This document shows, piece by piece, positions 1 to 40,611 of a stretch of 64,000 nt of DNA (its first letter is position 1; every line of letters begins with the position of its first letter). The stretch spans positions 17,091 through 81,090 of the forward strand of contig CAZLCD010000001.1 in assembly GCA_964558375.1 (NCBI GenBank), given 5' to 3'. The position numbers and the translations under genes were made by a program. The notes under the pieces are model-generated. The model was not told the origin of the DNA and did not search any database. It saw only the letters and a list, made by a program, of their open reading frames with translations. This stretch comes from an uncultured Candidatus Saccharibacteria bacterium. Lineage in GTDB: Bacteria; Patescibacteriota; Minisyncoccia; Phycocordibacterales; PALSA-1337.

Positions 1-232
1 TAAATTTCTGAGCATTGGTATCGACATATTCTTTAATATCAATCCCGAGGGCTAGCGCATTTCTTTGAACCTTTATCCCATGCTCATCTGTACCAGTGTT
101 GAAAAACACTTCATAGCCTTGCGACTTTTTGACCCGCGCTATGACATCTGCACGTATAAATTCCAAAGCATGTCCAATATGAGGCTCGGCGTTTGCGTAA
201 GGCAAGGTGGTTGTTATATAGAAGTTCTTCAT
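1..232 (-). CDS. metG: Methionyl-tRNA synthetase, N-terminal part (gene continues beyond window start)
   Basis: Minus-strand translation from ATG at 232: MKNFYITTTLPYANAEPHIGHALEFIRADV... (class I HIGH motif region typical of MetRS). ATGA start/stop overlap with the downstream peptidase gene. Confidence 0.7.
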   Translation of the reverse strand, partial: MKNFYITTTLPYANAEPHIGHALEFIRADVIARVKKSQGYEVFFNTGTDEHGIKVQRNALALGIDIKEYVDTNAQKF

Positions 233-1500
233 TTGAAAGTTAGGATCTTTTTAAATTTATTATCATCTTTATATGGACCTATTATAGCCAAGTTTAGCTT
301 TTCATCAACAAAGATCATTTTGGCAATATTCTGTATTTCCTCCGGCGTAACCTTTTCCATCTCCTCTATTTCCTCCATTGGAGTTTTGACTTCCCCTTTC
401 AAAATATTGGCGATAGCCACATACTCTGCTCTAGCGTCTGAAGTCTCAAGTCCCAAGAGAAATCCACCCTTGATAGAATCCTTAACCATTCTCAACTCCC
501 TCTCAGAAATTGGTTCGTCTATTAATTTCTTACACTCATCAATTAAAGTTTTAATAACTTCTTCAATCCTTGAAACATCAACCCCAGCAGAAATAGTAAA
601 TATTCCATGATCTGTGTATGTATCATTGTAAGCATTTACATAGTACCCGACACCCATCTCTTCACGAAGTTTCTGGAAAAGACGCGAGCTCATACCCTTA
701 CCCAGAACAGCTGAGAGCATACTTATCGCGGGGTCGTATTTATTTTTTGCATCAAAGGTTCTTACACCCAAGACAAGATGCGCTTGATCCGTCTCTTTAA
801 ATTTAAGAGAGATCGCTGGCTCGCCTTGAACCTCTTTAATTAAAAGCTTTTTACTTTTCTTTTCTGTAGAAATATTTGAAAAATATTTTGAAACTTTTTC
901 TATAATACTTTTTTCATCAAATGACCCAGAAACAATGACTGTGGTAGCCTCGGTTACATAATGATCCTTTATATAATTTACAAAATTATCTCTTGTAAAG
1001 CTTCTGACAGTCTGTTCATTGCCGGCTATATTCCACCCCGCTGGCTGATCTCCATATACAAGTTCCATAAAAATATTATGGATATTTCGATGTGGCATAT
1101 CTTGATACATTTTTATTTCCTCAACTATCACCCCTTTTTCTTTTTCAATTTCTTTTTCATTTAATAAAGGATTTAAATAAATGTCAGATACGACATCGAG
1201 AGCTGTGTCTATATGCTCTGGACTAACTTTGGCATAGTAGCCTGTGTATTCTTGAGAAGTAAAAGCATTGTACTGAGCTCCTAGAGATTCTAGTTCGCGA
1301 GAGATATCTATGGATTTCGGACGCTTAGATGTACCCTTAAAAACCATATGCTCAAGAAAATGCGAAAGGCCACTCACCTCTTTTGTCTCATATTTTGAAC
1401 CTGTTTCGACAGTTACAAGAACTGTAACAGCGGGATTGTCGACCATTGGGACGGTGATGACCTTGAGGCCATTTGGGAGAATTGTTTGGTGGAATTGCAT
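229..1500 (-). CDS. M16 family (insulinase-like) zinc peptidase
   Basis: HxxEH inverted zinc-binding motif (HFLEHMVFKG) near the N-terminus, about 420 aa, typical M16 architecture. Confidence 0.8.
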   Translation of the reverse strand: MQFHQTILPNGLKVITVPMVDNPAVTVLVTVETGSKYETKEVSGLSHFLEHMVFKGTSKRPKSIDISRELESLGAQYNAFTSQEYTGYYAKVSPEHIDTALDVVSDIYLNPLLNEKEIEKEKGVIVEEIKMYQDMPHRNIHNIFMELVYGDQPAGWNIAGNEQTVRSFTRDNFVNYIKDHYVTEATTVIVSGSFDEKSIIEKVSKYFSNISTEKKSKKLLIKEVQGEPAISLKFKETDQAHLVLGVRTFDAKNKYDPAISMLSAVLGKGMSSRLFQKLREEMGVGYYVNAYNDTYTDHGIFTISAGVDVSRIEEVIKTLIDECKKLIDEPISERELRMVKDSIKGGFLLGLETSDARAEYVAIANILKGEVKTPMEEIEEMEKVTPEEIQNIAKMIFVDEKLNLAIIGPYKDDNKFKKILTFK

Positions 1501-4808: not shown

Positions 4809-5378
4809 TTACAAATGACTTGCCTTAAGGGCAGAGTTCACAACTTCGACAATCTTTTTTTTATCCACCTTAAATGATTCAAGTAATTCTTGGTTCAAAA
4901 GATTATTTTCAACATATTTAGAAAAATTTTTGTTTGAAATATATCCAAGGGTATTGAGAATTCTTAGTATAGTCAGACATTCTATAGCTTCATAATTTTC
5001 TTCTTTAATCTCTTCTTTGATCGGGGTCTTATATAATTCCTCTATAATTTCAAATAGCTTTTCGTTTTTTTCTTCGCCATGAAGTAAACGCTTCAATAAT
5101 TTTAAGATTTTTAAATGCAGAATAGTTCCGGAAGTAGAAGTATATGGAAGTTCATGAGCACCCGTCACTCTCCAAACTTCCTTGCCTCGAACCACAGAAA
5201 TATTTGAGAAATTTGCATCCTGCACATGATAGCGAAGTTTGGACTGTGCCAACCTTATCCCCTGCGCCACCGCCCCTATCATCCCAAAGTCTTTTGTGAA
5301 GAGTAACAGAAACTTCCCCGCTTCGCCGTAAGGGCTACTATGAACAATAAACGCTGGGGTGGTGTAGATGTGATGCAT
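4809..5378 (-). CDS. recO: DNA repair protein RecO (short form lacking C-terminal zinc finger)
   Basis: N-terminal OB-fold region matches RecO (AFIVHSSPYGEAGKFLLLFTKDFGMIGAVAQGIR vs E. coli [34 protein letters not shown]). Confidence 0.65.
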   Translation of the reverse strand: MHHIYTTPAFIVHSSPYGEAGKFLLLFTKDFGMIGAVAQGIRLAQSKLRYHVQDANFSNISVVRGKEVWRVTGAHELPYTSTSGTILHLKILKLLKRLLHGEEKNEKLFEIIEELYKTPIKEEIKEENYEAIECLTILRILNTLGYISNKNFSKYVENNLLNQELLESFKVDKKKIVEVVNSALKASHL

Positions 5379-5382: not shown

Positions 5383-8300
5383 TTACCTCTCGATCTTCAT
5401 TTTAAGAGTAAGATCTCCTAGAGTGATCTGTTCTATATCTAAAGACTTAAACTCAATATCTTTTAATAAAGTTGCTTTTAGAATTGTCTCTTTATTTCTT
5501 AAAATCAAATCTGAATTGTCTTTCGATGAATCGATAGCGAGAACTACTTGATCTTTTATAGTCAAATTGCTCTCCTTCCTCAACTCCTGTATCGCTCTTA
5601 TAAGCTCGCGTACTATTCCCTTTTCTTTCAGATCTGGAGTGATGGTTGTATCCAAGACTACTTCTTCGTTAAGATTTTTATCGAAGACAACTTCTAGAAC
5701 ATTGACCTCGTCTTTTATTAACTCGAGCAAATCAGTAGGGATAGATTTCTTTATTGTAAGTTTTGATAGAGGTTGTCTGACATTGATCTTGGCTTTCATG
5801 CGCGCTTCAAGTCCTAGAGATGCCGTTATGCGCACTTCTCTCATATTTTCCAAAACACTATTATCAAATTTTGAAATCTCTGGCCAAGATTCTAAATGAA
5901 CACTTTCCTTCTCGCCCTTTAAACGAAGATAGATATCTTCTGCGATAAAAGGCATAAAAGGTGCCATCAGTTTTGTAAAATCGATAAGTATTTTTCTTAA
6001 GGTGGAAAGTGCCAAATCTCTATCACTCAAGTCTTCTCCTTTAAAACGATCGCGGGATCGACGCAAATACCAAGTCGAAAGATCGTCGACAAAATCCGCG
6101 ATAGGTCTAGAGGCTTTATCGACTTCGTATTTTGAAAGATTATCAGTGATGTCTTTTGTGATTTCATTGAGCCTTGTCATGATCCATATATCGAGAACAT
6201 GAGTACTTGCTGTATCTTTTTTAACTAATTTCTTTTCTAAAATATCAGGTGCGTACATTTCATAAAATGAAACGATATTGTTGAGACGACCGATATGTTT
6301 TTTGACGACTTCATCTACACCCTTTTCGGAAAAGGCAAAATCTTGACCCTTGACCACGGGCGAAGACATGAGGAAGTATCGAAGTGCATCAGCCCCGTAC
6401 TTATCCACCATAAGCATGAGATTTGGATAATTCTTTTTAGACTTTGACATTTTTTGACCATCTTCCGCTAGAACAAGACCGTTAACCACTACTTGTTTGT
6501 ATGGACTTTTGCCGAACAGCGCCACCCCAAGCACAAGCATGGAGTAGAACCATCCACGAGTCTGATCCAAACCTTCGGCGATAAAGTCTGCAGGATAACC
6601 CTTGGTCTTTCCCAAAATTTTACTAAATGGTCCAGGCTTTGGATTGAAGTCGCATTTGTTAAATGGATAATGTGCTTCACCGAAAGGCATAGAGCCGGAT
6701 TCAAACCAACAGTCAAAAACTTCCGGAACTCTTTGCATTTGATTGCCTTTTTCTGAAATAAGTTCTATGTCATCAATGAAAGGTCTATGAAGATCGATCT
6801 CGTATTTTTCATTGTGAGGTAAAGGATGGAAGTCGAGCTTTCTTGGTTTGGAATTTTTATTGTAATGTTCAGCTGAACCACGCAAAGCTATGGACTGCTT
6901 TTCATCCAAACCTTGCACGACGGTCTCGAGAAGGAAGAGTGGTGTATCGTGAGAGACAATTAGGATATTTTGACCCTTGTAACTTTTTTCCATATCATAG
7001 ATAAAATCCCCTACTCTCTTTTTTATATCAGTATAATTTTCACCTCCTTCAGGTGTCTGTGTAAAACGGTCTTTCTGAGCAAAGGCGTGCATAAAATCAT
7101 TGAAGTTTTTACCATTCCACACTCCAGCATTAAGTTCTGTGAGTCTATTGTCAGTTATTATCTTTGAGGCATCCAAATTAAGCTTCTTTGAAATAATTTC
7201 TGCGGTTTCTTTTGTTCTAATAAAAGGAGAAGTAAAAATTAGATCAATCTTTTTATTAGACAACCACTTGGAAGCATCGCTAGCTTGCTTTTTACCCATC
7301 TCACTAAGATGATGCGGATTGTCGGCTCGTGAACTTATGATTGCTTTTGTATTGTTTTCTGCTTCACCGTGCCTGCATACATAGTAAGTATTTCTAGCAT
7401 GACTATACTTTTTTAGATCATTTATAGAGCCTATCACCTTACACTCTTCAGTCTTGATATCCTTCCACACAGGAAGAGGTGCACCCCAGAAACGTGAACG
7501 GGAAATAGCCCAGTCTCGAGCACCGAGAAGCCAATTGCCGAACCTTCCCTCGCCCACCTCCTTTGGAACCCAGTCGATTTTTTTGTTTTCATTTACAAGC
7601 TTGTCGCGAATCGCTGTGACTTTTACAAACCAAGAAGAAGAAGCGTAGTTTAAAAGCGGAGTGTCGCAACGCCAACAATGCGGATACGAGTGAATAATTT
7701 TTTCTTTAGAGAAAAGGATATTTTTGTGAGCAAGGTATTTTATAATCTCAATATCTGCTTTTTGATGAGTTTCTATTTTATTGGCCTTATCCTCTGCTGT
7801 GTCCTTTGGCTTTACATCTTGCCCTGCAAAGTCTGTAACTTCTTTTTTGAATTTACCATCAGTACCAACATGTTGAATAAATGGCAGATTATTTTTTAAA
7901 GATAATTCATAATCATCAGCACCAAAAGCGGGAGCAATATGCACAATACCAGTCCCAGCATCTGTTGTAACAAAATCTGCTCCATAGATCTTCCATCCAT
8001 TCTGGAGATTTTTTAATTTGGCATCATCTGAATAATAATTAAAAATTGGCTCGTAAGACTGGCCGATGAGATCTTTGCCTTCTATCTCTTCGAGGGTTTT
8101 ATACTCTGTCTTTATAACTGATAGTCTGGATTGAGCAAGAATAAACTTTTCATTATTTATTTCTATCTTTATATATTTGATTGAGGGATTTATAGCCAAA
8201 GCCACATTCCCCGGTAAAGTCCAAGGGGTTGTAGTCCATGCCAAGAAAAAAGTATTCGCCTCGCTATTTTTTTCATCTTTCAATTTAAATTTAACATAGA

Positions 8301-8934
8301 CAGAAATATCTGTAATATCTTTATAACCTTGAGTCACTTCAAAATTGGAAAGTGTCGTTTCGCATCGCGGACAAAGGTTCATAGACTTGAACCCTTCGTA
8401 TATCAAACCTTTTTTATAGAGTTCAGCGAAAGCCCACCACACAGACTCGGTGTAGCTTGCATCCATAGTCCTATAATCATTTTCCATATCCACCCACCTT
8501 CCGAGGCGAGGAATTATCTTTCTCCAATCACTTGCATATTTCATCACACTGCCTTGTGCCATGGCATTGAACTTACCTATACCGTAGTCCACAATATCTT
8601 TTTTCGAGGCCAATTTTAATTCTTTCTCAACGATATTTTCTACAGGCAGACCATGACAATCCCAACCCCAACGACGGCGCACCCTATAGCCTTTCATAGT
8701 TTTGAAACGAGGAATAATGTCTTTGATAGTTCCAGGCACTACATGTCCATAGTGTGGCTCTCCAGTCGCAAAAGGTGGTCCATCATAGAAAACAAAGTCA
8801 CCCTTTGGCGAGCTCTTTTCCAAAGTCTTTTTGAAAATATTGTTCTTTTCCCAAAAGGCCAGTATTTTCTCCTCGGTCTCGGCTACCTTGCTTTTCTCTT
8901 GGGTTTTGTCTGTATTTATCGGTTCATTCTGCAT
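5383..8934 (-). CDS. ileS: Isoleucyl-tRNA synthetase carrying an internal histidine-phosphatase-like domain
   Basis: HIGH-type motif (PPFATGEPHYGH), KMSKS present, full-length IleRS similarity. About 190 aa inserted between the WGAPLPVW and DCWFESGS blocks, containing an RHGEAENN motif and a second His motif (LIVSHDTPL) of the histidine phosphatase superfamily. Confidence 0.9.
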   Translation of the reverse strand: MQNEPINTDKTQEKSKVAETEEKILAFWEKNNIFKKTLEKSSPKGDFVFYDGPPFATGEPHYGHVVPGTIKDIIPRFKTMKGYRVRRRWGWDCHGLPVENIVEKELKLASKKDIVDYGIGKFNAMAQGSVMKYASDWRKIIPRLGRWVDMENDYRTMDASYTESVWWAFAELYKKGLIYEGFKSMNLCPRCETTLSNFEVTQGYKDITDISVYVKFKLKDEKNSEANTFFLAWTTTPWTLPGNVALAINPSIKYIKIEINNEKFILAQSRLSVIKTEYKTLEEIEGKDLIGQSYEPIFNYYSDDAKLKNLQNGWKIYGADFVTTDAGTGIVHIAPAFGADDYELSLKNNLPFIQHVGTDGKFKKEVTDFAGQDVKPKDTAEDKANKIETHQKADIEIIKYLAHKNILFSKEKIIHSYPHCWRCDTPLLNYASSSWFVKVTAIRDKLVNENKKIDWVPKEVGEGRFGNWLLGARDWAISRSRFWGAPLPVWKDIKTEECKVIGSINDLKKYSHARNTYYVCRHGEAENNTKAIISSRADNPHHLSEMGKKQASDASKWLSNKKIDLIFTSPFIRTKETAEIISKKLNLDASKIITDNRLTELNAGVWNGKNFNDFMHAFAQKDRFTQTPEGGENYTDIKKRVGDFIYDMEKSYKGQNILIVSHDTPLFLLETVVQGLDEKQSIALRGSAEHYNKNSKPRKLDFHPLPHNEKYEIDLHRPFIDDIELISEKGNQMQRVPEVFDCWFESGSMPFGEAHYPFNKCDFNPKPGPFSKILGKTKGYPADFIAEGLDQTRGWFYSMLVLGVALFGKSPYKQVVVNGLVLAEDGQKMSKSKKNYPNLMLMVDKYGADALRYFLMSSPVVKGQDFAFSEKGVDEVVKKHIGRLNNIVSFYEMYAPDILEKKLVKKDTASTHVLDIWIMTRLNEITKDITDNLSKYEVDKASRPIADFVDDLSTWYLRRSRDRFKGEDLSDRDLALSTLRKILIDFTKLMAPFMPFIAEDIYLRLKGEKESVHLESWPEISKFDNSVLENMREVRITASLGLEARMKAKINVRQPLSKLTIKKSIPTDLLELIKDEVNVLEVVFDKNLNEEVVLDTTITPDLKEKGIVRELIRAIQELRKESNLTIKDQVVLAIDSSKDNSDLILRNKETILKATLLKDIEFKSLDIEQITLGDLTLKMKIER

Positions 8935-9050: not shown

Positions 9051-10751
9051 CTACATCCTCCCCGGAACTTTGATTCCTAGTACCCACAAACCATTCTGCA
9101 TTACTTGTGCAAAAACTTTGGTGAGCAGAACTCTGTAGGAAGAAATAGGATCTTCTTCATTAATAATCTGATGATTGGCATAGTAGAAATTGAAAGCGGA
9201 AGAAAGCTCGGTCAAATAGGTCACGATATGACTTGGTGCGTATTCAAGTCTAGCTCTTTCTATAATTTCTGGGAAACGTACTAGAAGCCTTTCGAGAGAG
9301 TCTATCTTTTCTGGTAAAGTTTTGATTTCTTCTGAGATTTTAGAATCTTTTGCTTTGGAGATGACGGTATTGGCACGGACAACGGCATACTGAAGATACG
9401 GACCAGAATCCCCTTCAAAAGATAGAGCTTTGTCTGGATCATATATAATATCTCCACCGATAGATTGACGAAGAATGGTGTATTTTAATCCTGCAATCGC
9501 GACTTCTGTCAGAACTTTATTTTTCTCTATATCGTCAAAATCTCTATCTTTAATTTTATCTTGCACAAGAGTTTCAAATTCTTTGATCAAATCTTCCGCT
9601 GAAACAATATTTCCTTTTCTCGAAGACATCTTACCGCTCTTCGGACGAAGAATGCCATGACTTATATGTTTAGTTTTTGAAGCCATGTTTGTATCGATCT
9701 GTTTTAGTACAGCGAGTATAACTTTAAAATATGCATTCTGTTCATTTGCAGTGATTACGATAGATTCACTAAGGTCTGGATACAATTTAAATTTATTTTC
9801 TGTAAGACCAAGTTCTTTGGCTTCGTATGTAGGCAAGCCTTGAGAATTGATGAACACTCGAGTATGTTCGCCGTATTTCTCTCCAGGAAAGACTATCGCC
9901 CCCTGGCTTTCTTCAAAAACTCCCTTTTTAAGAAATTCTTTCACGATCTTCACGCCATCATCAGCAACCTCGCTTTCAAAGAAAAAGTTGTTGAACTTGG
10001 TTCCGAGTTTCTCGTAAATTTCGTCAAAATATTCAAGACTAAGCTTTCGACCAGCACCATAAACCTTGTTTATTTCTGCGTCAGATTTTTCAAAGATCTT
10101 TTTGTTTATCTCAATAATTTCTTTTTTTGCAATTTCATCGGTTTCGTATTTTTCTGAACCAAGAACATACATATCTCCAAGAAACTTTATAGAAAAGCTT
10201 TTCTGTGCTTTATATTCTTCACTTTTACATACTGCCCAGATAGTCTTTGCCACATGCAGACCTACATCTCCCTGATAGCAAGCACGTATAACTTCAGCTC
10301 CAGAAAATTCTACTATTTTAGAAATGGACTCCCCTATTGTATTCGCCATAAGATGACCAATATGAAAAATCTTAAATGGATTCGGATCAGTGTATTCGAC
10401 CATTATTCTTTTGCCATCATCCAATTTAATCTTTCCAAAATTTTCTAAATCTTTTGATACTTCTATTATCTGATTCGCAAAATATGTATCGGCTATTTTA
10501 AAATTAATAAACCCCGGGCCGGCGATCTCTACCGATTCGACATTCTCTGGAATTTCTTTTTTAAATTCCTCAATGATTTTCTCTGCGAGAACCTTTGGCG
10601 ATACACCAAGAGACTTGGCATGCATCATGGCGATGTTCGAAGAAAAATCTCCATATTTTATATCCTCTGGATGATCCAATTTTATAAATGGATCAGAAAT
10701 ACCAGCCTTTTCTGAGGATTTCTTTAGCTGTTCGGTAATGGTTTTAATCAT
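9051..10751 (-). CDS. argS: Arginyl-tRNA synthetase
   Basis: HIGH motif (HIGHLMANTIGESI), ArgRS N-terminal and anticodon-binding regions, about 566 aa. Confidence 0.9.
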   Translation of the reverse strand: MIKTITEQLKKSSEKAGISDPFIKLDHPEDIKYGDFSSNIAMMHAKSLGVSPKVLAEKIIEEFKKEIPENVESVEIAGPGFINFKIADTYFANQIIEVSKDLENFGKIKLDDGKRIMVEYTDPNPFKIFHIGHLMANTIGESISKIVEFSGAEVIRACYQGDVGLHVAKTIWAVCKSEEYKAQKSFSIKFLGDMYVLGSEKYETDEIAKKEIIEINKKIFEKSDAEINKVYGAGRKLSLEYFDEIYEKLGTKFNNFFFESEVADDGVKIVKEFLKKGVFEESQGAIVFPGEKYGEHTRVFINSQGLPTYEAKELGLTENKFKLYPDLSESIVITANEQNAYFKVILAVLKQIDTNMASKTKHISHGILRPKSGKMSSRKGNIVSAEDLIKEFETLVQDKIKDRDFDDIEKNKVLTEVAIAGLKYTILRQSIGGDIIYDPDKALSFEGDSGPYLQYAVVRANTVISKAKDSKISEEIKTLPEKIDSLERLLVRFPEIIERARLEYAPSHIVTYLTELSSAFNFYYANHQIINEEDPISSYRVLLTKVFAQVMQNGLWVLGIKVPGRM

Positions 10752-10831
10752 GTGAATATTCTAGCATTAAAAGACTTTCTTTGGCGAAATTTGACTTTTT
10801 TACAATACATGTTAGCTTATATGAAGACTTC

Positions 10832-10951
10832 GGATTGGTACGGGAGGTTGTTAAGTTTTGCAGCCTTGCAGCGCCAGAGCGCTCGACAAAGACGTCTTTT
10901 TGTTGCCGTACCAATCCTATACCCGCGTAGCTGACTTACCAGTTGCGCGGG
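10832..10951 (-). promoter_or_regulatory. Structured GC-richer element in argS leader / glyA 3' region
   Basis: Perfect 12-bp inverted repeat (ggattggtacgg 10832-10843 / ccgtaccaatcc 10906-10917) enclosing two small palindromes, followed by a GC hairpin cccgcg...cgcggg (10922-10951) and a T-rich run. Confidence 0.3.
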
Positions 10952-10962
10952 TTAATTTTTAT

Positions 10963-12186
10963 CTATTTCTTAAGAATCTTATCGATCCTCTCCGCAATCT
11001 TTTTCATATCCTTTTCTTTCTTTCCACGAGTTGTCTCTGCGGCGGTACCGAGTCTTATACCAGAAGGATCTGTAGGAGGTCTAGTGTCGAAAGGTATAGC
11101 GTTTTTGTTTACAATTACCCCCTCTTTTTCTAGTCTATCACTTGCCTCTTTGCCAGAGATTCCTTTGAAGCCATTCTTCTGCGGACTAAAAGTATCGATG
11201 AGTATAAGATGACTATCTGTTCCTCCAGAAATTATTCTCCAGCCATGCTTCGCCAATTCTTCCGCAAGAACTTTTGCATTCTTTTTTACTTGGCTCGCGT
11301 ATTTTTTAAAAGCAGAAGTCGAAGCCTCCTTTAAAGCTACTGCGACCGCGGCAACCTGATTCATGTGTGGACCACCCTGAAGTCCTGGGAAGACGGCTTT
11401 GTCTATAAGGTCACCGATACTATATTCTATATTTTTATTATCTTTATTTGTTTTTGATATTTTTTTATCATTTCTTGAAAAGATAATAGCACTACGAGGA
11501 CCACGGAGAGTTTTGTGGACTGTTGTTGTTACGATATCTGCATATTGGAAAGGGCTTGGATATACCTTACCCGCCACAAGACCTGCGATATGTGACATGT
11601 CTATCATGAGAAGTGCGCCACAACTATCTGCTACTTCGCGAAGTTTTTTAAAATCAATCTGACGAGGGTATGCAGTATAACCACCGACGATTATTGTAGG
11701 CTTTTCCCGCAATGCTATTTCTTTTAATTCATCATAATCAAGAAGCTCGGTATTTTTATTTACTCCATATGGAATCTGTGTCCAAAACTTACCAGTCGCT
11801 GACACTTTGTGACCATGAGTAAGGTGACCTCCTTGATCAAGGGACATGCCCATTATTTTTCCACCCTGAGGAACGAGTGCGAGATACACAGCCAAGTTTG
11901 CCGGCGAACCGGAGAGAGCTTGGACATTTACATGCCAGTCATGAGCCTTAAGATCAAAAAGGTTTAGAGCTCGCTCGATAGCCAAAGACTCTACCTTATC
12001 CACTACTTCATTGCCACCATAATAGCGCTTCATTGGATAACCTTCTGCGTATTTGTTCGTAAGCTCTGAACCAAGAGCCTCAAGAACGTCCTTTGAAACA
12101 TAGTTTTCTGAAGCTATGAGGTTCACAACCGACTTTTGGCGCTTCTTTTCGGTATCAATTAGTTTTTTGATTTGTGTATCTTTCAT
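10963..12186 (-). CDS. glyA: Serine hydroxymethyltransferase
   Basis: Strong SHMT similarity from internal Met (MKDTQIKKLIDTEKKRQ...ASENYVS...). The six-frame ORF extends 53 codons upstream, but the likely true start is the ATG at 12186. Confidence 0.9.
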   Translation of the reverse strand: MKDTQIKKLIDTEKKRQKSVVNLIASENYVSKDVLEALGSELTNKYAEGYPMKRYYGGNEVVDKVESLAIERALNLFDLKAHDWHVNVQALSGSPANLAVYLALVPQGGKIMGMSLDQGGHLTHGHKVSATGKFWTQIPYGVNKNTELLDYDELKEIALREKPTIIVGGYTAYPRQIDFKKLREVADSCGALLMIDMSHIAGLVAGKVYPSPFQYADIVTTTVHKTLRGPRSAIIFSRNDKKISKTNKDNKNIEYSIGDLIDKAVFPGLQGGPHMNQVAAVAVALKEASTSAFKKYASQVKKNAKVLAEELAKHGWRIISGGTDSHLILIDTFSPQKNGFKGISGKEASDRLEKEGVIVNKNAIPFDTRPPTDPSGIRLGTAAETTRGKKEKDMKKIAERIDKILKK

Positions 12187-12257
12187 GGTGGTTATGCGAT
12201 TATTGATGCTTGTAATAAAAGCAATTGTAGCATTATATAAAAAATGGACAAATAAAA

Positions 12258-12312
12258 AAGGGGCTGGAGTCGAACACATGCAATATGTGACGACCCAGCG
12301 CCCGATGTTTGT
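12258..12312 (-). terminator. Rho-independent terminator downstream of tmk
   Basis: On the minus strand: GC stem (gggcgctgg...ccagcccc) with an internal hairpin, followed by a T-run (tttttt). It lies between the tmk stop and the glyA start. Confidence 0.4.
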
Positions 12313-12429
12313 GGTGATATCCATCACTCTGTAGTGAATTGTCACTCACGAGCTGTTAAAAAACAGCTTTTATGACTAACGTCTACTGTTCAATGTGCGG
12401 ACATCAAATAGATTACACCCGTCACTATT

Positions 12430-13062
12430 TTAAGTCAATAGTTTTTCCACAGTTTTGAGAAACTCCACCTTCACCTCTTCAAAAGGCCTGTTTGCGTCAA
12501 TCACAACATGTGGAACTTTTTTTAGAAAGATCTTATAGCCCTTTCGCAATAATTTATGAAAATCCACTTCCCTATCATCAAAATGATTGCCTTCTGTATT
12601 CTTAGAATTCCGAGAACGTGCACGCCTCAAACCCTCTTCAACATCTACATCGAGATAAATATAAAGATCGGGTTTTCTTGAGATATGACTTCTCAAATTC
12701 CAAAATAATTTTTCTAGATGTTTACCTTTCTGTGCATGAATCTGATAGGCATAAGAAGAAGCGTCGAAGCGATCAGAGATTACATTTTGACCTTTGGCGA
12801 GAGCAGGTTTTATAAGTTTCTCTACATGGTCAAAGCGCGCGGCGAACATCAGGCATATCATAGTCTCAGCCACAGCGTCTTTGGAAAGTGGGTGCTTGAG
12901 CGCTGTCTCTCTTATAGCTTCAGCGTAACTAGAGCCTCCAGGTTCACGAGTGAGAAGCACGGAGTCTCCAAGCTTTTCTTTGAGAGCCTTTATGAGGGAT
13001 GACTTCCCTGCACCTTCTCCACCTTCTATTACAATAAATTTGGGTTGTTGATGTTTAGTCAT
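12430..13062 (-). CDS. tmk: Thymidylate (dTMP) kinase
   Basis: P-loop IEGGEGAGKSS, TREPGG motif, length about 210 aa. Confidence 0.85.
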   Translation of the reverse strand: MTKHQQPKFIVIEGGEGAGKSSLIKALKEKLGDSVLLTREPGGSSYAEAIRETALKHPLSKDAVAETMICLMFAARFDHVEKLIKPALAKGQNVISDRFDASSYAYQIHAQKGKHLEKLFWNLRSHISRKPDLYIYLDVDVEEGLRRARSRNSKNTEGNHFDDREVDFHKLLRKGYKIFLKKVPHVVIDANRPFEEVKVEFLKTVEKLLT

Positions 13063-13135
13063 TGGAAATATTCTAGCATAGAAAAAGCGAGGTACTGTAC
13101 TTTGACAGCCCTCGCGTGAAAAGTGCGTGATGCGA

Positions 13136-13876
13136 TTATTTGGGAGGAGCCACTACCCCTCTTGTCATAACAACTGAATCCGCAGTGCTAGTTAGACCAC
13201 ATGCGCAAGTTTCCAATGTGCAATTCGGGCATCCTTTCCCAAAGACACTCAGATATTCTGCCATCAGACTCATTGGAAACCCCTGGAGCTCAGAAATTGT
13301 ATTCGCAACCGCAAACAAATTCGCGATTACATCAACAAGCTCCAACACCACTTCTTCGAAGAGTTTATTAGTGTGGCGAGCTACGTAGTCGATATATGCT
13401 TCGAGTAATTCTGCACCCTCTTCAGTTAGATGTGCTCCTGAATCCACTAAAGTGTTTTGAGGATAAATTCCTGCAAACATGAATTGCAGTCCAGCAACCG
13501 AAAGTGGGACGGGTAAATTTCCAGCTGGAGTTTCCAAACCTCTTACACTCGCCCGCTTATTGCCACAGGCACAAGGTGCTGTAGTGCAGTAGGGACAAAC
13601 TCCGGGAAATCTTTTCCTGACTTCCATATCCAGATCCAACGATAGGTGATTTGCCAGTGCCAAAGACCAGGAAAAAGCCATTACCGTACCTCTTCTGATA
13701 TCTTCTGCCTTGCCCTTACGAATCCCTTTGGTTGCTATAGTTGCGTAACGCAAGATCTTCATACACATTTGTGTAGGGCTGTACACTCGGCTATTTTGTA
13801 GCCAATATATTTCCCGATTTAAAGACTGAACATGGTAGAAGCTAACCCTTTCAGGGGGCGGTAGTATAGTGAGCAT
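13136..13876 (-). CDS. MazG/DCTPP1-like all-alpha NTP pyrophosphohydrolase domain protein with two CPxC-x4-CxC cysteine clusters
   Basis: Core EEGAELLEAY...EEVVLELVDVIANLFAVAN resembles the DCTPP1/MazG EVGELAELFQW...QEELSDVLIYLVALA helices. Two near-identical Cys motifs (CPYCTTAPCACG, CPNCTLETCACG). Local GC content is clearly higher (about 45%) than flanking genes. The start codon is uncertain. Confidence 0.45.
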   Translation of the reverse strand: MLTILPPPERVSFYHVQSLNREIYWLQNSRVYSPTQMCMKILRYATIATKGIRKGKAEDIRRGTVMAFSWSLALANHLSLDLDMEVRKRFPGVCPYCTTAPCACGNKRASVRGLETPAGNLPVPLSVAGLQFMFAGIYPQNTLVDSGAHLTEEGAELLEAYIDYVARHTNKLFEEVVLELVDVIANLFAVANTISELQGFPMSLMAEYLSVFGKGCPNCTLETCACGLTSTADSVVMTRGVVAPPK

Positions 13877-32088: not shown

Positions 32089-32143
32089 ATTCGAACCCAA
32101 AATACCCCCTGTTTTTATACAGAAGTAACCTAATATAACGATG

Positions 32144-32215
32144 GGTGCCCAGAGAGAATCGGACTCTCGACTCAGGTTCCACAAACCCGGGTTTTACCAC
32201 TAAACTATGGGCACC
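32144..32215 (-). tRNA. tRNA-His (anticodon GTG) with encoded G-1
   Basis: Cloverleaf on the minus strand: 8-bp acceptor including G-1:C73, D-stem GTTT/AAAC, anticodon loop TTGTGGA, T-arm GAGAG-TCCGATT-CTCTC. No CCA encoded. Confidence 0.8.
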
Positions 32216-32310
32216 ATATCACGCTTAGCTATTATATCAGCAAAACGTTGTGTCTCAACACTATCATGATGTACTAGAAAATGGCAATTGGATACCTATA
32301 AATTCATTAG

Positions 32311-32394
32311 TGCCCAGGAGAGGACTCGAACCTCCACGCCCGTGAGGGCTTATCCACCTCAAGGATAAATGTCTACCAGTTTCAACACCTGGGC
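32311..32394 (-). tRNA. tRNA-Leu (anticodon GAG), long variable arm
   Basis: Minus strand GCCCAGG acceptor, anticodon stem TATCC/GGATA with loop TTGAGGT, long variable arm, T-arm GGAGG-TTCGAGT-CCTCT. Confidence 0.8.
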
Positions 32395-32415
32395 ATTTAA
32401 AACCAAACAAAAACC

Positions 32416-32853
32416 CTAAGCCGCCACTTCTTCCTCCTTCTTCTCTTCAGCTACTACTGCATCGTGTTTTGTATCTGTATTCTGATCCTTATCAATAGAA
32501 AGCATACGGCGCATCTGGCGGCGGATTTCTTTTGCAGCCTTTTCACGCACAAAGTAAAGCTTTGCTCGGCGAACCTTAGAACGACGTAGAAGTTCAACCT
32601 TATCGATCATAGGAGTGTATAGAGGGAAGATCTTCTCAACACCCACACCATCGATCACCTTTCTTACAGTAAATGTAGCTCCGGCTTCAGTACCGTGCTT
32701 ACGAGCTAGAACCAAGCCTTCGAAAGCCTGTAGACGTGTCTTACCCTTCTCTTGAATCTTTTGCCAAACTTTCACAGTATCTCCAGGTTTAATATCCAGA
32801 GTCTTTCTCTCTTCTATCTTAACGGATGAAATAATATTAGTATTTGTTGCCAT
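32416..32853 (-). CDS. rplS: 50S ribosomal protein L19
   Basis: Conserved L19 sequence (PGDTVKVWQKIQEKGKTRLQAFEGLVLARKH...FTVRKV). Confidence 0.9.
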   Translation of the reverse strand: MATNTNIISSVKIEERKTLDIKPGDTVKVWQKIQEKGKTRLQAFEGLVLARKHGTEAGATFTVRKVIDGVGVEKIFPLYTPMIDKVELLRRSKVRRAKLYFVREKAAKEIRRQMRRMLSIDKDQNTDTKHDAVVAEEKKEEEVAA

Positions 32854-32880
32854 AATTTTTATTGTGTAGTGTAGACAAAT

Positions 32881-33627
32881 CTAACACAGCTCCTTGATTT
32901 TCGCAACTTCAGCGATACCTAGTTCAGTAAAAGCATTTATAAAGTCCTTAGGAATTGGAGCTTTTACTAAGATCTTTTTACCAAGAACATTTGTGAAATT
33001 TATACTATAAGCATGTAGAGCATTCCTAGTAAAACCTATTGTATTGGTCTTTTCTGGAGCATAAAGCCCGTCGCAGACAACAGGATGGTTTAAAGCCTTA
33101 AAGTGAACACGGATCTGATGAGTTCGACCGGTCTTGGGTTCAACCTCAAGGAAAGAGTACCCCCCTCTAGTAGAGATAAGGGTGTACCAAGTCTCCGCAT
33201 CACGAAGCTCCCCTCTTGCGCCACGAGTGGCTGACCATCGACGAAAGTCTTTTGGACTTCTACCTATTGGACGATTTATAATACCAAACTGATCTTTTAT
33301 TTCTCCATATACGAAAGTAAGATACTTTTTGACAAGTGTTCTCTCTTGAAACTGCTCTTTGAGACATGCATGCCCTGCTTTTGTCTTGGCTATAAGAAGT
33401 ACACCAGAAGTATCACGATCAAGCCTATGTACGATGCCCGGACGCTCTATGACACCATAGTCCTTAGTCTCTATTGGCTCTCCAACATTCTTAGTCTTTG
33501 GATAATTTTCCAAAACCCAATCCGTGATGAATGGACCTTTTGACTTTCCGTCTGGATGTATGACAATACCCGCAGGCTTGTCTATGGCCACAATGTCTTT
33601 GTCTTCGTATAAGATAGGGATTTGCAT
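32881..33627 (-). CDS. RluA-family pseudouridine synthase (start trimmed)
   Basis: HRLDRDTSGVLLIAKT motif. The six-frame ORF runs into the tRNA-Val gene, so the start was reassigned to the ATG at 33627 (MQIPILYEDKDIVAIDKPAG). Confidence 0.8.
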   Translation of the reverse strand: MQIPILYEDKDIVAIDKPAGIVIHPDGKSKGPFITDWVLENYPKTKNVGEPIETKDYGVIERPGIVHRLDRDTSGVLLIAKTKAGHACLKEQFQERTLVKKYLTFVYGEIKDQFGIINRPIGRSPKDFRRWSATRGARGELRDAETWYTLISTRGGYSFLEVEPKTGRTHQIRVHFKALNHPVVCDGLYAPEKTNTIGFTRNALHAYSINFTNVLGKKILVKAPIPKDFINAFTELGIAEVAKIKELC

Positions 33628-33641
33628 AGCTTGGGTTCTAG

Positions 33642-33714
33642 TGCGCGATGCAGGACTCGAACCTGCGACCTTTCCAGTGTAAATGGATTGCTCTACCAAC
33701 TGAGCTAATCGCGC
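33642..33714 (-). tRNA. tRNA-Val (anticodon TAC)
   Basis: Minus strand GCGCGAT acceptor, D-arm GCTC-AGTTGGTA-GAGC, anticodon loop TTTACAC, T-arm GCAGG-TTCGAGT-CCTGC. Confidence 0.8.
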
Positions 33715-33767
33715 ATTAAGATTTATTTATACACTAATAAATAGGAAAATTCAAGGATAATTTGTAA

Positions 33768-33812
33768 AAAAATTAAAATCACCTCCTACAAAATAGAAAG
33801 TGATTTTAATTA
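33768..33812 (-). terminator. Hairpin terminator downstream of the DUF378 gene
   Basis: 9-bp stem taaaatcac...gtgatttta followed by a T-run on the minus strand. Confidence 0.4.
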
Positions 33813-33840
33813 AATCTTATGTTCCTAACCTCCCTACAAT

Positions 33841-34092
33841 CTACACTGCTGAACTTGTTTCACAGCAATCCTTACAAGTTTTCTTATGTGTAACGATAAG
33901 ATAAATAGCTGATAGACCTACTAGTATATAGACTACTTTTGCGATAACTGCAGGCAAGTATTCTACTATACCCATACCTGAAGCACCCAAACCTAGACCA
34001 ACCAATAACCAATTCAAGCCTCCTACGATAACCAAAATAAATGCAATTGTGTGTAATACTTTCATAATATTTGATAAATTATTAATAATCAA
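33841..34092 (-). CDS. DUF378-like small membrane protein
   Basis: LVIVGGLNWLLVGL motif typical of DUF378, two TM helices. The start may be the internal MKVLHT. Confidence 0.5.
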   Translation of the reverse strand: MIINNLSNIMKVLHTIAFILVIVGGLNWLLVGLGLGASGMGIVEYLPAVIAKVVYILVGLSAIYLIVTHKKTCKDCCETSSAV

Positions 34093-34169
34093 TTACTGCG
34101 ATAATTATACCATTTTACACATAGCAAAGCATAGAGGTTATACACAACTATTCAACAGTTAATCCATAA

Positions 34170-34191
34170 ATGTGCCTTCGGTAGGAATCGA
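34170..34191 (-). repeat. 22-nt duplicate of the tRNA-Arg 3' end (att-like direct repeat)
   Basis: atgtgccttcggtaggaatcga at 34170-34191 is identical to 34347-34368 (T-loop 3' part, T-stem 3' strand and acceptor 3' strand of tRNA-Arg). The 155-nt spacer is GC-rich. Confidence 0.5.
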
Positions 34192-34349
34192 GTCACAGGT
34201 CTCGGACTGACGTCCTCGCCCGCGACCCCGCCTCGCTCGATGCAATTCGCTACGCTCATATAGCATCTTCGCTCCGGCCGTTCGATTCCTACAATAAGTC
34301 ATCTGTGGTACATAAAATACCGAGATAAACTCGGCATTTTATGACCATG

Positions 34350-34421
34350 TGCCTTCGGTAGGAATCGAACCTACATCAAGACCTTAGAAGAGTCCTGTTC
34401 TATCCATTGAACTACGAAGGC
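34350..34421 (-). tRNA. tRNA-Arg (anticodon TCT)
   Basis: Minus strand GCCTTCG acceptor, D-arm GTTC-AATGGATA-GAAC, anticodon loop CTTCTAA, T-arm TAGG-TTCGATT-CCTA. Confidence 0.8.
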
Positions 34422-34463
34422 TATTAGAAGAATATACCAGTAAAATGCTAAATTTACAAAATT

Positions 34464-34793
34464 TTACAAAGAAGGATCTTTTACAGTACCAAAACCTTTT
34501 TTAATTTGAGCTTGTATCTCTGCCTTAAGATCAAACAATTTTATTATCGATTGCAGCTCTTTTTTATCGAAAATTTTAGATACGGACTTTTTCGCGGCAG
34601 TAGAACCTTGAGAGCCACTGTCTATAACTTTTTCATATAGTAAGAATCCACCATAGACTAGTCCTGCGGTGCAGATAAAGCCGATCAACAAGATAGTTAG
34701 CCAATCGACAAAGGGGTTTCTGCCTATTTCCCGGATGGAGCCGTAGACCGAAAGGTTTGGTACATTATTATATTTTTTATTAAAGGGGTTCAT
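34464..34793 (-). CDS. Small hypothetical membrane protein (last gene of the pilMNO operon)
   Basis: One TM helix. Lies 3 nt downstream of the pilO-like gene. Confidence 0.35.
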   Translation of the reverse strand: MNPFNKKYNNVPNLSVYGSIREIGRNPFVDWLTILLIGFICTAGLVYGGFLLYEKVIDSGSQGSTAAKKSVSKIFDKKELQSIIKLFDLKAEIQAQIKKGFGTVKDPSL

Positions 34794-34796
34794 AAA

Positions 34797-35297
34797 TTAT
34801 TTTGTAGTTAGGACAGATAGGTCAAAGGTCATCTCCCATTTTTTATCTCTATTAAATAGACTAACATTTTCAAGAGAGATACTATAAGGCAAATTCTCGA
34901 TCAATGTTAGTGCTAGCATCACATTGATCCATCCTCCTTTTATATCTATATGCGTTCTGACCTTGAGGGCATCTTTTACAATAGAGGAAATTCTTATTTC
35001 GGTTTTAGAGCTGGGACCGATGGATTCTATGGTCTTTATAAAATTTAAAACTTTACTTTCTGAAACAAATAAATTTGGGAGCTTTGCTCGGTCGATAGCG
35101 GTGTCTTTATAGACTTGCATAAGTTCATTTTCATATTGTTGCTTACCCCTCTCAGTCTCGACCTCTTTACTTACCTTTAAATAATTTTCTTTTTGCTTCA
35201 AAACCGTGTCGTAGACATACCAATATCCAAAACCTGAAACCAAGAAAGTGGCAGTTGCAAAGAAAATCAATATATAGTGTTTGGAATTTGTTTTCAT
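34797..35297 (-). CDS. pilO: Type IV pilus assembly protein PilO-like
   Basis: N-terminal TM, coiled segment, then a C-terminal beta domain. Third gene of the pilM-pilN-pilO order. Confidence 0.5.
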   Translation of the reverse strand: MKTNSKHYILIFFATATFLVSGFGYWYVYDTVLKQKENYLKVSKEVETERGKQQYENELMQVYKDTAIDRAKLPNLFVSESKVLNFIKTIESIGPSSKTEIRISSIVKDALKVRTHIDIKGGWINVMLALTLIENLPYSISLENVSLFNRDKKWEMTFDLSVLTTK

Positions 35298-35300
35298 ATT

Positions 35301-35849
35301 TTATTTGAAAGTGATGAGCATAGCGAAGTCTATATCCTTGACCTTGGTAAAATCCGATATTGGCAGCTCTACACTAAATACCGAAGGGTTATTTTGAAAA
35401 ATTTCTTTGAAGTTAAAGAGGTCTTCTCTGGTCAAGGCTCTACCCTGTACTACGACCTTGGCTGTAGACGAAGCATTGGTAGAAGCCGAGACACTGAAGG
35501 CACTGAGAGTGATGGACTTAGTTTTAAGCTCGGCAGTTTTTTTGATAAAGTCAGAGTAGAAAATATTTCTTTGATTGGATTTAATTTTTTTCAATAATTC
35601 TGCATCGCTCGTCAGTTCTTTGGTAATCTGAGTAATACTCAAATTACTTTCCCCTTCTGTATCTTTTTTAATTTTCTCCAAAGAACTTTGCTCTTGTGAG
35701 TAGATAATCATATACGAAGGTATCAGAGAAGCGATACCAAGAATTAGCGCACAAGAAAGAAAAAACATAAGCATCACGAAGACGCGAGTGCGGTATTCCC
35801 GTCTCAAAGCATGCATTTCTTTTTCTGGTAAAAGTGTATAGTGAATCAT
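35301..35849 (-). CDS. pilN: Type IV pilus assembly protein PilN-like
   Basis: Short cytoplasmic N-terminus, single TM helix and periplasmic domain. Lies between pilM and pilO. Confidence 0.5.
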   Translation of the reverse strand: MIHYTLLPEKEMHALRREYRTRVFVMLMFFLSCALILGIASLIPSYMIIYSQEQSSLEKIKKDTEGESNLSITQITKELTSDAELLKKIKSNQRNIFYSDFIKKTAELKTKSITLSAFSVSASTNASSTAKVVVQGRALTREDLFNFKEIFQNNPSVFSVELPISDFTKVKDIDFAMLITFK

Positions 35850-35855
35850 AAAAAT

Positions 35856-36794
35856 TTATGGCAAAGCTAGACCTGCGGCCACGGCGTATTCGAGCGAATC
35901 GTCATGTTTTAATTTTGGAATATGATGCGCGTTTGAAAAAGCATTTCTCCAGATTTGGGCCAGCTCTACTGGAATCTTTGGATCTGGAGAGAGGTTCGAA
36001 AATCCACCAACTCGAACCGCATCACATCCAGCAAGAATAATGCGATTGATAGGTGCGCCATCACCATAGTCGAGCCAATACGTATAGACTTTATTTAATT
36101 CTCTTTGAAGAATCGAAATATCTGCACCTTTCTCTATAGCTAGGGTTGAAGTGAAGCACACTACCCCGCCACAGACAATATATATACCCACTTTTCTGTT
36201 CATGCTATTTACAATTATCTGAGTCTCAATTGAATCCCTAGGAACCACCGCATGTGCTATGGCCTTGGCTTGTATTTCAAAAGAAATCACTTGAACTCCA
36301 GCCGCAGAAATGACCTTGAGATAAGAATCGACCAACTCTTTGGGAGCCACCGAAACACTTGCTTGAATTTTACCATTTTTATTTATATCAGGAATTCTGT
36401 CATAGAAAAATATCGCGTCCTTGGCTGCTAGAGGAACATTTTCCTCGAGCTTGAAGTCAATTTTTTGACGTATCTCATCTTCGCGAGCATTGGCAATTTC
36501 TGTTTTAAAAAGATACATGCGTTCTTCTGGTAGCGAAGCCTTAACCGTATGTATTCTCAAACTCTTGGTCAAAGAATGAATAGCCGCCCCAAGTTCCGCT
36601 TCGTTTTTTATATGACCACCCTCTACTACCCCAGCCTTTAGGGGAATGGAGCCGTAGCGATGCAGCTTATAGCTACTTATGCCTTTGGAAAAATCTATAC
36701 AGTGGACAGCGTCGTCAGAAATATCCAAGCCTGCATAGTGAATATTCAGAAACTTTGGCGGTGGAAATAATTTGAAAAATGTCTTGGTAAACAT
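35856..36794 (-). CDS. pilM: Type IV pilus assembly ATPase-fold protein PilM
   Basis: Actin-like fold protein with AGLDISDDAVHCI N-terminus typical of PilM. Confidence 0.7.
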   Translation of the reverse strand: MFTKTFFKLFPPPKFLNIHYAGLDISDDAVHCIDFSKGISSYKLHRYGSIPLKAGVVEGGHIKNEAELGAAIHSLTKSLRIHTVKASLPEERMYLFKTEIANAREDEIRQKIDFKLEENVPLAAKDAIFFYDRIPDINKNGKIQASVSVAPKELVDSYLKVISAAGVQVISFEIQAKAIAHAVVPRDSIETQIIVNSMNRKVGIYIVCGGVVCFTSTLAIEKGADISILQRELNKVYTYWLDYGDGAPINRIILAGCDAVRVGGFSNLSPDPKIPVELAQIWRNAFSNAHHIPKLKHDDSLEYAVAAGLALP

Positions 36795-36822
36795 GTGAGC
36801 TTGCCCACTATTATAACATACC

Positions 36823-37425
36823 CTATTTCCTAGTTTTCAAAAATTCAATGATTGGCGGAATAAAGGAGATTACGATTATTATTAAAACAATCGGCGTTAA
36901 GTATTTTTCGGCATCAGGAATGATATTGCCCAAAATATAACCGAGCCCAAGCATTCCCCAAGTCCAGATGAAGCCACCGACAATATTGTATTTGATAAAT
37001 GTTTTGTATTCCATGCCGGCAATACCAGCCACTATCGGCGCGAAGGTTCTAACAATGGGGATGAACCTGGCTAGGATTATGGTTTTCACGCCGTGCTTTT
37101 CATAAAATCTCTGTGCATGTTCAATATGCTTTTTGTGAAAAAAAATCGAATCCTCCTTTTTAAAAATCATCGGTCCGGTTTTGCGGCCAAAAGAATAGCC
37201 GACACTATCGCCAATCACAGCTGCCAAGAAACATAGTATGAGCAACCAGAAAATCGATATCAAATCTTGCGAAGCCAAGAATCCAGCGGTGAACAGAAGC
37301 GAATCTCCCGGCAAGAAAAAGCCGAAGAATAACCCGGACTCGGCAAAGACAATAAAGACAACACCGAGCAAGCCCAAGGTTTTTATAATAATTAGCGGAT
37401 CAAGCAAATTGTGTAGCCATTCCAT
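36823..37425 (-). CDS. DedA family membrane protein
   Basis: DedA signature (FAESGLFFGFFLPGDSLLFTAGFLAS...GRK.G). Confidence 0.7.
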   Translation of the reverse strand: MEWLHNLLDPLIIIKTLGLLGVVFIVFAESGLFFGFFLPGDSLLFTAGFLASQDLISIFWLLILCFLAAVIGDSVGYSFGRKTGPMIFKKEDSIFFHKKHIEHAQRFYEKHGVKTIILARFIPIVRTFAPIVAGIAGMEYKTFIKYNIVGGFIWTWGMLGLGYILGNIIPDAEKYLTPIVLIIIVISFIPPIIEFLKTRK

Positions 37426-37451
37426 AATTGTTTTTCTATTTTACTTATTTT

Positions 37452-38229: not shown

Positions 38230-38297
38230 GGGTTTAGTGTACTCTAAGTTGAATTTTGTAGCAAAATATGGGAGTATTTGAGAGTTATGAAGTATAC

Positions 38298-38384: not shown

Positions 38385-38390
38385 CAGATT

Positions 38391-39827: not shown

Positions 39828-39849
39828 ATTAGTTTTATAATAACCCCCT

Positions 39850-40607: not shown

Positions 40608-40611
40608 CAAA

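Follow-up and report, generated by a model that had tools for sequence, protein, structure and literature searches.

A histidine phosphatase domain carried inside the isoleucyl-tRNA synthetase of Patescibacteria and its probable coupling to the host enzyme

Domains appended to or inserted in aminoacyl-tRNA synthetases (aaRSs) have been seen before, and although aaRSs are among the best-studied enzymes, we know of none with an active phosphatase. The isoleucyl-tRNA synthetases (IleRSs) of Thermus thermophilus (1ILE), Priestia megaterium (IleRS2, 8C8U), and yeast (7D5C and 8WND) share a single order of parts: Rossmann fold, connective peptide (CP) core, CP1, CP2, CP3, anticodon-binding domain, and a C-terminal DUF5915-type region, together with the HIGH and KMSKS signatures. 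Here we describe an ileS gene (5383..8934, minus strand) in a stretch of 64,000 nucleotides, hereafter the window, from contig CAZLCD010000001.1 of an assembly labeled as an uncultured Candidatus Saccharibacteria bacterium (GCA_964558375.1). Its product has the same order of parts, but where the three described enzymes have a turn of 1-2 residues it carries a histidine phosphatase of ∼200 amino acids (aa). We consider it likely that this type-2 IleRS is now bifunctional and that the phosphatase in its CP3, whose subfamily also supplies an operon partner of ileS in relatives, is coupled to the synthetase.

The phosphatase domain and its place in the synthetase

The gene is a single unbroken open reading frame (ORF) of 1183 aa, encoding a type-2 (eukaryote-like) IleRS with an internal histidine phosphatase domain; all features of the gene given below lie on the minus strand. 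A first-pass annotation of the window had recognized an IleRS, and the protein indeed scores 897.5 bits against TIGR00392 (ileS, NCBIfam; cut-off, 621.4), over two matched stretches with the insert between them. Pfam finds tRNA-synt_1 (E 9e-135), His_Phos_1, Anticodon_1, and DUF5915. The profile check suggested by the same annotation returned a significant match: PF00300 (His_Phos_1) covers aa 518-678 and model positions 2-163 of 194, with an E value of 4.4e-33 and 115 bits against a gathering threshold of 21.7. This match sits in frame between two tRNA-synt_1 stretches, in agreement with the proposal that a complete branch-1 histidine phosphatase has been genuinely inserted within one reading frame. 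A second, independent contig in public data (Logan, SRR12762304) encodes an identical protein, and chance or artifact is ruled out by the Pfam E value of 4e-33, this second contig, and hundreds of orthologues.

The catalytic motifs stand where the first-pass annotation had put them, in a segment (6820-7401) that corresponds to aa 512-705. RHGEAENN (7351..7374, aa 521-528) contains R521, the nucleophile H522, G523, and N528; RTKETA (7201..7218, aa 573-578) supplies the second phosphate-binding arginine, R573; the predicted general acid/base, E600 (7135..7137), lies in the motif TELNAGVWNG; and LIVSHDTPL (6937..6963, aa 658-666) holds the second catalytic histidine, H662. All the catalytic residues are present, and R521, H522, G523, N528, R573, E600, and H662, along with E632 and R640, are invariant in 121 orthologues (the window protein and its 120 best full-length homologues). 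Position 573 is arginine in 362 of 363 fused copies, position 600 is acidic (E or D) in 61 of the 62 free copies and in ∼99% of the fused ones, and the whole R-H-R-(E/D)-H set is retained in ∼99% of ∼360 fused copies (protein hits and genome loci pooled) and in 60 of 62 free copies. With R521, H522, N528, R573, E600, and H662 all intact, the domain would be equipped to hydrolyze phosphomonoesters through a phospho-His522 intermediate, E600 presumably serving as the acid.

The α/β/α fold of the family was confidently predicted. The AlphaFold2 (AF2) model of the insert alone, built from an 80-sequence alignment, has a mean predicted local distance difference test score (pLDDT) of 94.6 and a predicted template modeling score (pTM) of 0.91; the model of the whole protein has a pLDDT of 85.3 and a pTM of 0.75, with 92-97 for the insert blocks and ∼90 for the junctions. 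Its Foldseek neighbors are PspA (4IJ5/4IJ6), CobC (6E4B/6NRU), PhoE (1H2E), GpgP (4PZ9), and a riboflavin-pathway HFP (9MMH), these small phosphatases being matched with a TM score of 0.66-0.70 and 20-27% sequence identity, and PspA, CobC, PhoE, and GpgP with a probability of 1.00. H522 is aligned to PspA H9, which 4IJ6 carries in mutated form, and the insert, like the small-molecule phosphatases PhoE, PspA, and CobC, contains a cap subdomain and a GGE-x-Y motif. Two species have shortened inserts of ∼183 aa (L068, 8001-8549; L075, 8001-8558), which lack the cap region (profile positions ∼90-120) and keep both core halves.

Several precise identities were tried and rejected. For a 2,3-bisphosphoglycerate (2,3-BPG)-dependent phosphoglycerate mutase (dPGM), the best model, NF038349 (dPGM_arch), gave 98 bits against a cut-off of 225 and every bacterial dPGM model stayed below 50 bits; the NCBIfam equivalogs for PspA and CobC gave 80.6 bits (cut-off, 350) and 89.6 bits (cut-off, 162.9), respectively, and SixA gave 46.3 bits (cut-off, 74.5) with a match confined to the N-terminal third. 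PADLOC models for anti-phage defense proteins match neither the insert nor a free homologue. The motifs of dPGM, which we take to be ERHYG at the acid and HGN at the second histidine, differ from TELNAG and SHDTP of the insert, which are of the phosphatase type. We infer that the insert is a PhoE/PspA/CobC-like phosphatase rather than a 2,3-BPG-dependent mutase, and that it is most probably an active phosphomonoesterase of a subfamily not yet characterized.

The histidine phosphatase family also includes protein phosphatases, and toxin kinases that target aaRSs are known. A protein phosphatase like SixA, Sts-1, or PGAM5 that dephosphorylates IleRS or a partner, for example reversing inhibition by a HipA-like kinase, would have an intramolecular substrate, which would account for a flexible insertion site, and the partial SixA match of 46 bits hints in the same direction. 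That match is weak, however, and falls short of the SixA cut-off, while the cap subdomain and GGE-x-Y point to small-molecule phosphatases, and we hold this explanation to be improbable.

The insert evolves faster than its host, with a mean pairwise identity of 55% compared to 73% for the IleRS core, yet it is clearly constrained. The faster pace and the shortening of the cap region in a few lineages (L068 and L075) would fit an insert that is catalytically dead and only structural, one that is neutral or selfish, or one that arose as an artifact of assembly or of a frameshift. This view is largely refuted by conservation and appears to us very improbable, given that the catalytic pentad is retained in ∼99% of copies, that the same ORF is found on the independent contig and in hundreds of independent assemblies, and that the insert junctions are confidently modeled; nor are repeats or intein-like features required as an explanation.

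The first-pass annotation had located the insert within the catalytic core, but the actual site is the peripheral CP3 subdomain. In yeast IleRS, CP3 comprises residues 459-526, and the pocket for the tRNA CCA end and reveromycin is lined by the linker that leads into CP3 (453-465) and by D527/W529, which follow it (PMC7955072); CP3 has been described as peripheral and structurally variable, with its zinc motif present or not (PMC7191050). The alignment of the window protein with yeast IleRS breaks at query 515 (chain 496) and restarts at query 713 (chain 498), and ∼200 residues (aa ∼512-712) therefore stand in for a turn of 1-2 residues. This break and the published domain limits place the insert in distal CP3, outside the Rossmann core strands, and the insertion point is the tip or distal part of this connective peptide, a surface loop.

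Along the chain, the CP2-CP3 linker SRSRFWGAPLPVW (7465..7503, aa 478-490), the counterpart of the yeast 453-465 linker, leads into the N-terminal half of CP3 (7402..7464, aa 491-511), in which the CxxC zinc knuckle has been lost (KDIKTEECKV). There follow the inserted phosphatase (6799..7401, aa ∼512-712), the C-terminal half of CP3 (6727..6798, aa 713-736; IDLHRPFIDD...), where canonical IleRS alignment restarts, and PEVFDCWFESGS (6691..6726, aa 737-748), which returns to the second half of the Rossmann fold. The annotation had counted ∼190 residues between the IleRS blocks; 246 residues separate SRSRFWGAPLPVW from PEVFDCWFESGS, so that the count does not hold, while the large extra segment it described does, at ∼200 aa. 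The zinc cysteines of T. thermophilus CP3 (PMC7191050) are absent from the window protein and present in some insert-bearing orthologues. Zinc-knuckle cysteines of the form CxxC...CxC flank the insert in many orthologues, the window protein being without them, and they also occur in insert-less relatives (for instance P0003, P0007, and the ileS of L088).

The synthetase body around the insert is intact. Its matches in the PDB run from E 1e-193 to 1e-213 for the yeast (8WND and 7D5C), P. megaterium (8C8U), and T. thermophilus (1ILE) enzymes, and the match to type-1 Staphylococcus aureus IleRS is weaker (E 1e-94), which puts the window protein on the type-2 side. The HIGH signature of the class I active site (HYGH; 8743..8754, aa 61-64) is nearly invariant in the 121 orthologues. 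The CP1 editing domain (7675..8334, ∼aa 201-420) includes the invariant WTTTPWTLPGN and GTGIVHIAPAFG blocks, with invariant columns at W233-N243, G327-G338, and D341, and matches the isolated IleRS editing-domain structures 1wk8 and 1ue0. Further on are the KMSKS signature (6439..6453, aa 828-832), the Anticodon_1 domain (5761..6192, aa 915-1058), and the C-terminal DUF5915 typical of type-2 IleRS (5386..5661, aa 1092-1183). Since the HIGH and KMSKS signatures and the editing and anticodon-binding domains are all present, the enzyme should charge tRNA-Ile and proofread the product as usual. The window gene most likely encodes the housekeeping type-2 enzyme of a bacterium from the Patescibacteria, of the Paceibacteria/Parcubacteria type. 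Two special forms were rejected: the mupirocin-resistant enzymes MupA and MupB, with 747 and 722 bits against a threshold of 1900 reflecting only generic type-2 kinship, and NF040702 (ileS_w_GNAT), with 339 bits against 1999 and no GNAT domain seen by Pfam in the window protein.

Distribution of the fused gene and a free phosphatase gene beside ileS

When the insert and its flanks were used as query, we recovered 22 fragments with both PF00133 and PF00300, at 34-69% identity and labeled Patescibacteria, Paceibacterota, or Vogelbacteria, and also many free proteins of ∼190 aa with PF00300 alone. With the full-length protein as query, each of the 120 best full-length homologues, which are 56-94% identical to it, has both domains. 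Representatives of 50%-identity clusters, 1.84 billion in number, were searched with a profile, and of the best 150 hits 148 were assessed, with the phosphatase domain present in 143. In a scan of one genome per GTDB species, the fused gene is carried by at least 107 species genomes of Patescibacteria (Paceibacteria/Parcubacteria lineages); 80 of the at least 107 matching loci were inspected, and the N-terminal part, the insert, and the C-terminal part share one ORF in 75 of these.

Most of the 80 fused loci have argS upstream and recO downstream of ileS. Their records are labeled Paceibacterota, Zambryski-, Taylor-, Nomura-, Adler-, Wolfe-, Colwell-, Yanofsky-, and Doudnabacteria, and Minisyncoccia, with Gracilibacteria appearing once and Saccharibacteria for many third-party assemblies. 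Public annotation calls the fused proteins merely "isoleucyl-tRNA synthetase" or "class I tRNA ligase family protein." Such wide carriage across homologues, clusters, and species genomes indicates that the phosphatase-bearing enzyme is the normal ileS product of a large Patescibacteria clade. The architecture had been called nonstandard, which is correct in that no characterized IleRS has it and that our full-text literature searches (IleRS or aaRS with histidine phosphatase, phosphoglycerate mutase, Parcubacteria, Patescibacteria, or GNAT) found no description of it; it is not, however, rare.

We inspected the neighborhoods of free homologues at seven loci. At all seven, an insert-less ileS (953-977 aa) is closely preceded on its own strand by a free His_Phos gene. 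The gap is at most 4 nucleotides, or the genes overlap, at five of them (P0028, P0049, P0054, P0061, and P0070), and at the remaining two a single gene stands between them, of which one is an ORF of 238 aa and the other the Fic-domain gene at 5807-6934 of L089. The order argS - His_Phos - ileS, with at most small ORFs between, holds at five of the seven, recO usually being next. At the other two, argS does not adjoin the pair (in one case the stretch shown does not contain it, and in the other it is six genes upstream), and His_Phos and ileS are still together.

In the window, argS (9051..10751, minus strand) lies directly upstream of ileS, whereas relatives have the free His_Phos between the two, and recO (4809..5378, minus strand), a conserved syntenic partner, lies directly downstream. 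The window order of argS, ileS, and recO, all on the minus strand, is therefore that of the free-gene loci without the separate His_Phos. None of the 80 inspected loci has a free His_Phos copy within 8 kb of the fused ileS, and no second His_Phos was found in the 64-kb window. A NUDIX gene lies a few kilobases upstream of the free His_Phos-ileS pair in L002 (1-502) and L004 (1-132), with a second His_Phos there in L002.

The free copies of ∼190 aa are ∼30-60% identical to their best fused CP3 match, with a mean of ∼45%. By comparison of the N-terminal core with that of insert-bearing enzymes, the insert-less IleRSs with a free neighbor form two groups, at ∼60% and ∼42% identity, and as both have the free neighbor, the His_Phos-ileS linkage spans a deep divergence. 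Among nearest neighbors by IleRS core, free-neighbor and fused states are interleaved, an interleaving that alone gives no count of events. The insert descends from, or shares ancestry with, the host gene found immediately upstream of ileS in relatives. The selfish insertion put forward in the first-pass annotation fits poorly with a domain so related to a neighboring gene of the host.

A free phosphatase gene upstream of ileS, and often overlapping it, implies that the two activities would already have been cotranscribed before they were joined into one polypeptide, the direction from free gene to insert being the one we favor. The fact that the same phosphatase is a separate gene directly upstream of ileS in relatives also argues that both enzymes probably work together, in a manner not yet described.

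Other insertion sites and possible roles of the phosphatase

The phosphatase occurs at three sites in related IleRSs. At site A, the CP3 position of the window protein, the tRNA-synt_1 model breaks at ∼263-272 of 414 (more than 180 proteins). At site B, after DxWFxSG...HYPF, the model breaks at 314-335 (P0346 and P0370); the site was located by these Pfam break points, the inserts having been paired with each other in the global MAFFT alignment. At site C, between KMSKS and Anticodon_1 (∼aa 909 in window numbering), the model is complete to 405-413 (P0344, P0385, and P0381). Some proteins have two phosphatase copies, in the combinations A+A (P0273), A+B (P0345), A+C (P0267), and B+C (P0363 and P0374); locus L077 is likewise among the cases with the phosphatase at other IleRS positions or doubled. 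Free, site A, site B, and site C copies are all ∼35-45% identical to one another. The presence of the same domain at two or more other loops would point to selection for physical and stoichiometric coupling. In the window protein, the loop after HYPF that is equivalent to site B (6592..6666, aa ∼757-781) has a lineage-specific extension, PKPGPFSKILGKTKG, without a domain; it is short and modeled with low confidence (pLDDT 59-71, blocks 75-78).

Other small enzymes have been inserted in IleRSs of the same clade. In other lineages site B holds His_Phos, Ser_hydrolase, or P-loop domains (Pfam breaks at 314-335 in P0346, P0363, P0374, and P0381). The additional domains comprise a NUDIX (P0388, aa 226-343), GNATs (two in P0383, one in P0371), a Ser_hydrolase (PF06821; P0381, aa 562-734), an IS200-like Y1_Tnp (P0371, aa 340-461), and a weak P-loop kinase-like match to AAA_18/AAA_33, below Pfam thresholds, in P0353 (aa 747-869), which also has His_Phos.

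Three points weigh against our main reading. These unrelated insertions mean that IleRS could be merely a permissive host, the free-homologue neighborhoods inspected number only seven, and no NCBIfam equivalog cut-off is reached by the insert or any of its free relatives. The main competing explanation is a metabolic housekeeping phosphatase, for example one of broad specificity acting on sugar phosphates, or one for phosphoserine or a cofactor precursor, whose chemistry is unrelated to aminoacylation and which is carried by ileS for constitutive coexpression in a minimal genome, in loops that tolerate it. Its nearest structures are indeed metabolic phosphatases, and chemically unrelated NUDIX, GNAT, kinase-like, Ser_hydrolase, and even Y1 transposase domains sit in the same scaffold. 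To our knowledge, moreover, none of the substrates and products of IleRS other than AMP is a phosphomonoester. On the other hand, overlapping operon genes already give coexpression, the repeated capture of the same domain in three internal loops, sometimes twice per protein, is left unexplained, and the His_Phos-ileS pair stays joined where argS has moved off. We regard this explanation as a serious contender with somewhat less than an even chance of being right.

As to what a coupled phosphatase might act on, we would tentatively name a small phosphate-bearing compound, either a metabolite or a nucleotide, or else a tRNA end that carries a phosphate. Alarmones and dinucleoside polyphosphates, which had been suggested earlier, are not favored; alarmones, Ap4A, and cyclic phosphates are anhydrides or diesters, which are atypical substrates for the histidine phosphatase family.

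The phosphatase might also serve the IleRS reaction system itself, as a cis-acting repair or housecleaning module that takes a 3'-phosphate or pyrophosphate off damaged or toxin-modified tRNA-Ile ends or clears AMP, 3'-phosphonucleotides, or pAp. CP3 is flanked on both sides by CCA-pocket residues (yeast 453-465 and D527/W529; PMC7955072), the domain is recurrently tethered at several IleRS loops, and the co-inserted NUDIX, P-loop kinase-like (with His_Phos in P0353), GNAT, and Ser_hydrolase domains are of classes that act on nucleotides, RNA ends, and aminoacyl groups. The case is entirely inferential, however, and the P-loop matches are below Pfam thresholds. We also know of no member of the histidine phosphatase family that heals RNA 3' ends, and such a role seems to us possible but doubtful.

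A broader form of this idea would make IleRS of Paceibacteria-type Patescibacteria a platform for "care" enzymes (His_Phos at three loops, NUDIX, P-loop kinase-like, GNAT, and serine hydrolase) acting on its own substrates, with the CP3 phosphatase as a cis repair or antidote module that strips phosphate or pyrophosphate from tRNA-Ile ends, or from IleRS, after toxin attack. The CCA-pocket anchoring of CP3, the flexible site, and the nature of the co-occurring domains are compatible with a role directed at tRNA-Ile, by-products, or IleRS, and we nevertheless rate the platform as unlikely. If true, this would add to the known kinds of repair a new class, directed at tRNA or enzyme and embedded in an aaRS.

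Translation and nucleotide genes crowd the neighborhood of ileS (1-2835 and 9051-13152), of which the eight genes nearest ileS were covered by our Pfam scan. In addition to argS, the window has a class I aaRS fragment (2-250, minus strand), an M16 peptidase (232-1509), a class II aaRS (1513-2835), glyA (10966-12345), and tmk (12433-13152). Six tRNA genes (His-GTG, Leu-GAG, Val-TAC, Arg-TCT, Ser-TGA, and Lys-TTT) form a loose cluster at 32143-40608, and there is no tRNA-Ile gene in the 64-kb window.

Likeness to known systems

A phosphatase that stays with IleRS, whether encoded by an overlapping gene upstream or lodged in one of three loops, and whose catalytic residues are strictly conserved constitutes a strong "Rosetta stone" signal. 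This pattern suggests that IleRS function in this clade involves an overlooked phosphomonoester, the candidates being a nucleotide, a tRNA end, or a phosphoprotein. That CP3 and two further IleRS loops accept whole-enzyme insertions is useful for aaRS engineering and adds to the picture of how functions are packed in ultra-small genomes.

Among free-standing enzymes, Hydrogenobacter PspA (4IJ5), Geobacillus PhoE/YhfR (1H2E and 1EBB), the α-ribazole phosphatase CobC (6E4B and 6NRU), and mycobacterial GpgP (4PZ9) have the same fold and Arg-His...Arg...Glu...His set as the insert and share with it the phosphatase-type motifs E-x3-G-x-W-x-G and GGE. The window phosphatase differs from them in being embedded in an aaRS and is only 20-27% identical to them.

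Histidine phosphatases covalently joined to a second enzyme are found in the Rv2228c-type RNase H/acid phosphatase (NF005567) and in PFK-2/FBPase-2. Both NF005567 and PFKFB chains give partial matches to the insert (92 bits for NF005567, with a cut-off of 326), and the RNase H fusion ties His_Phos to a nucleic-acid enzyme. These fusions are end to end, whereas the window domain is a loop insertion. For an IleRS with an extra enzyme domain, NF040702 (IleRS with GNAT) offers a precedent, but with another domain; GNAT-bearing IleRSs are found in the clade studied here as well (P0383 and P0371).

The CP1 editing domain of class Ia aaRSs is likewise a hydrolytic domain inserted in a connective peptide of the Rossmann fold, from which it follows that such an insertion is well tolerated in these enzymes. 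CP1 is ancient and universal and acts on aminoacyl esters in a defined role, whereas the CP3 phosphatase is restricted to one lineage.

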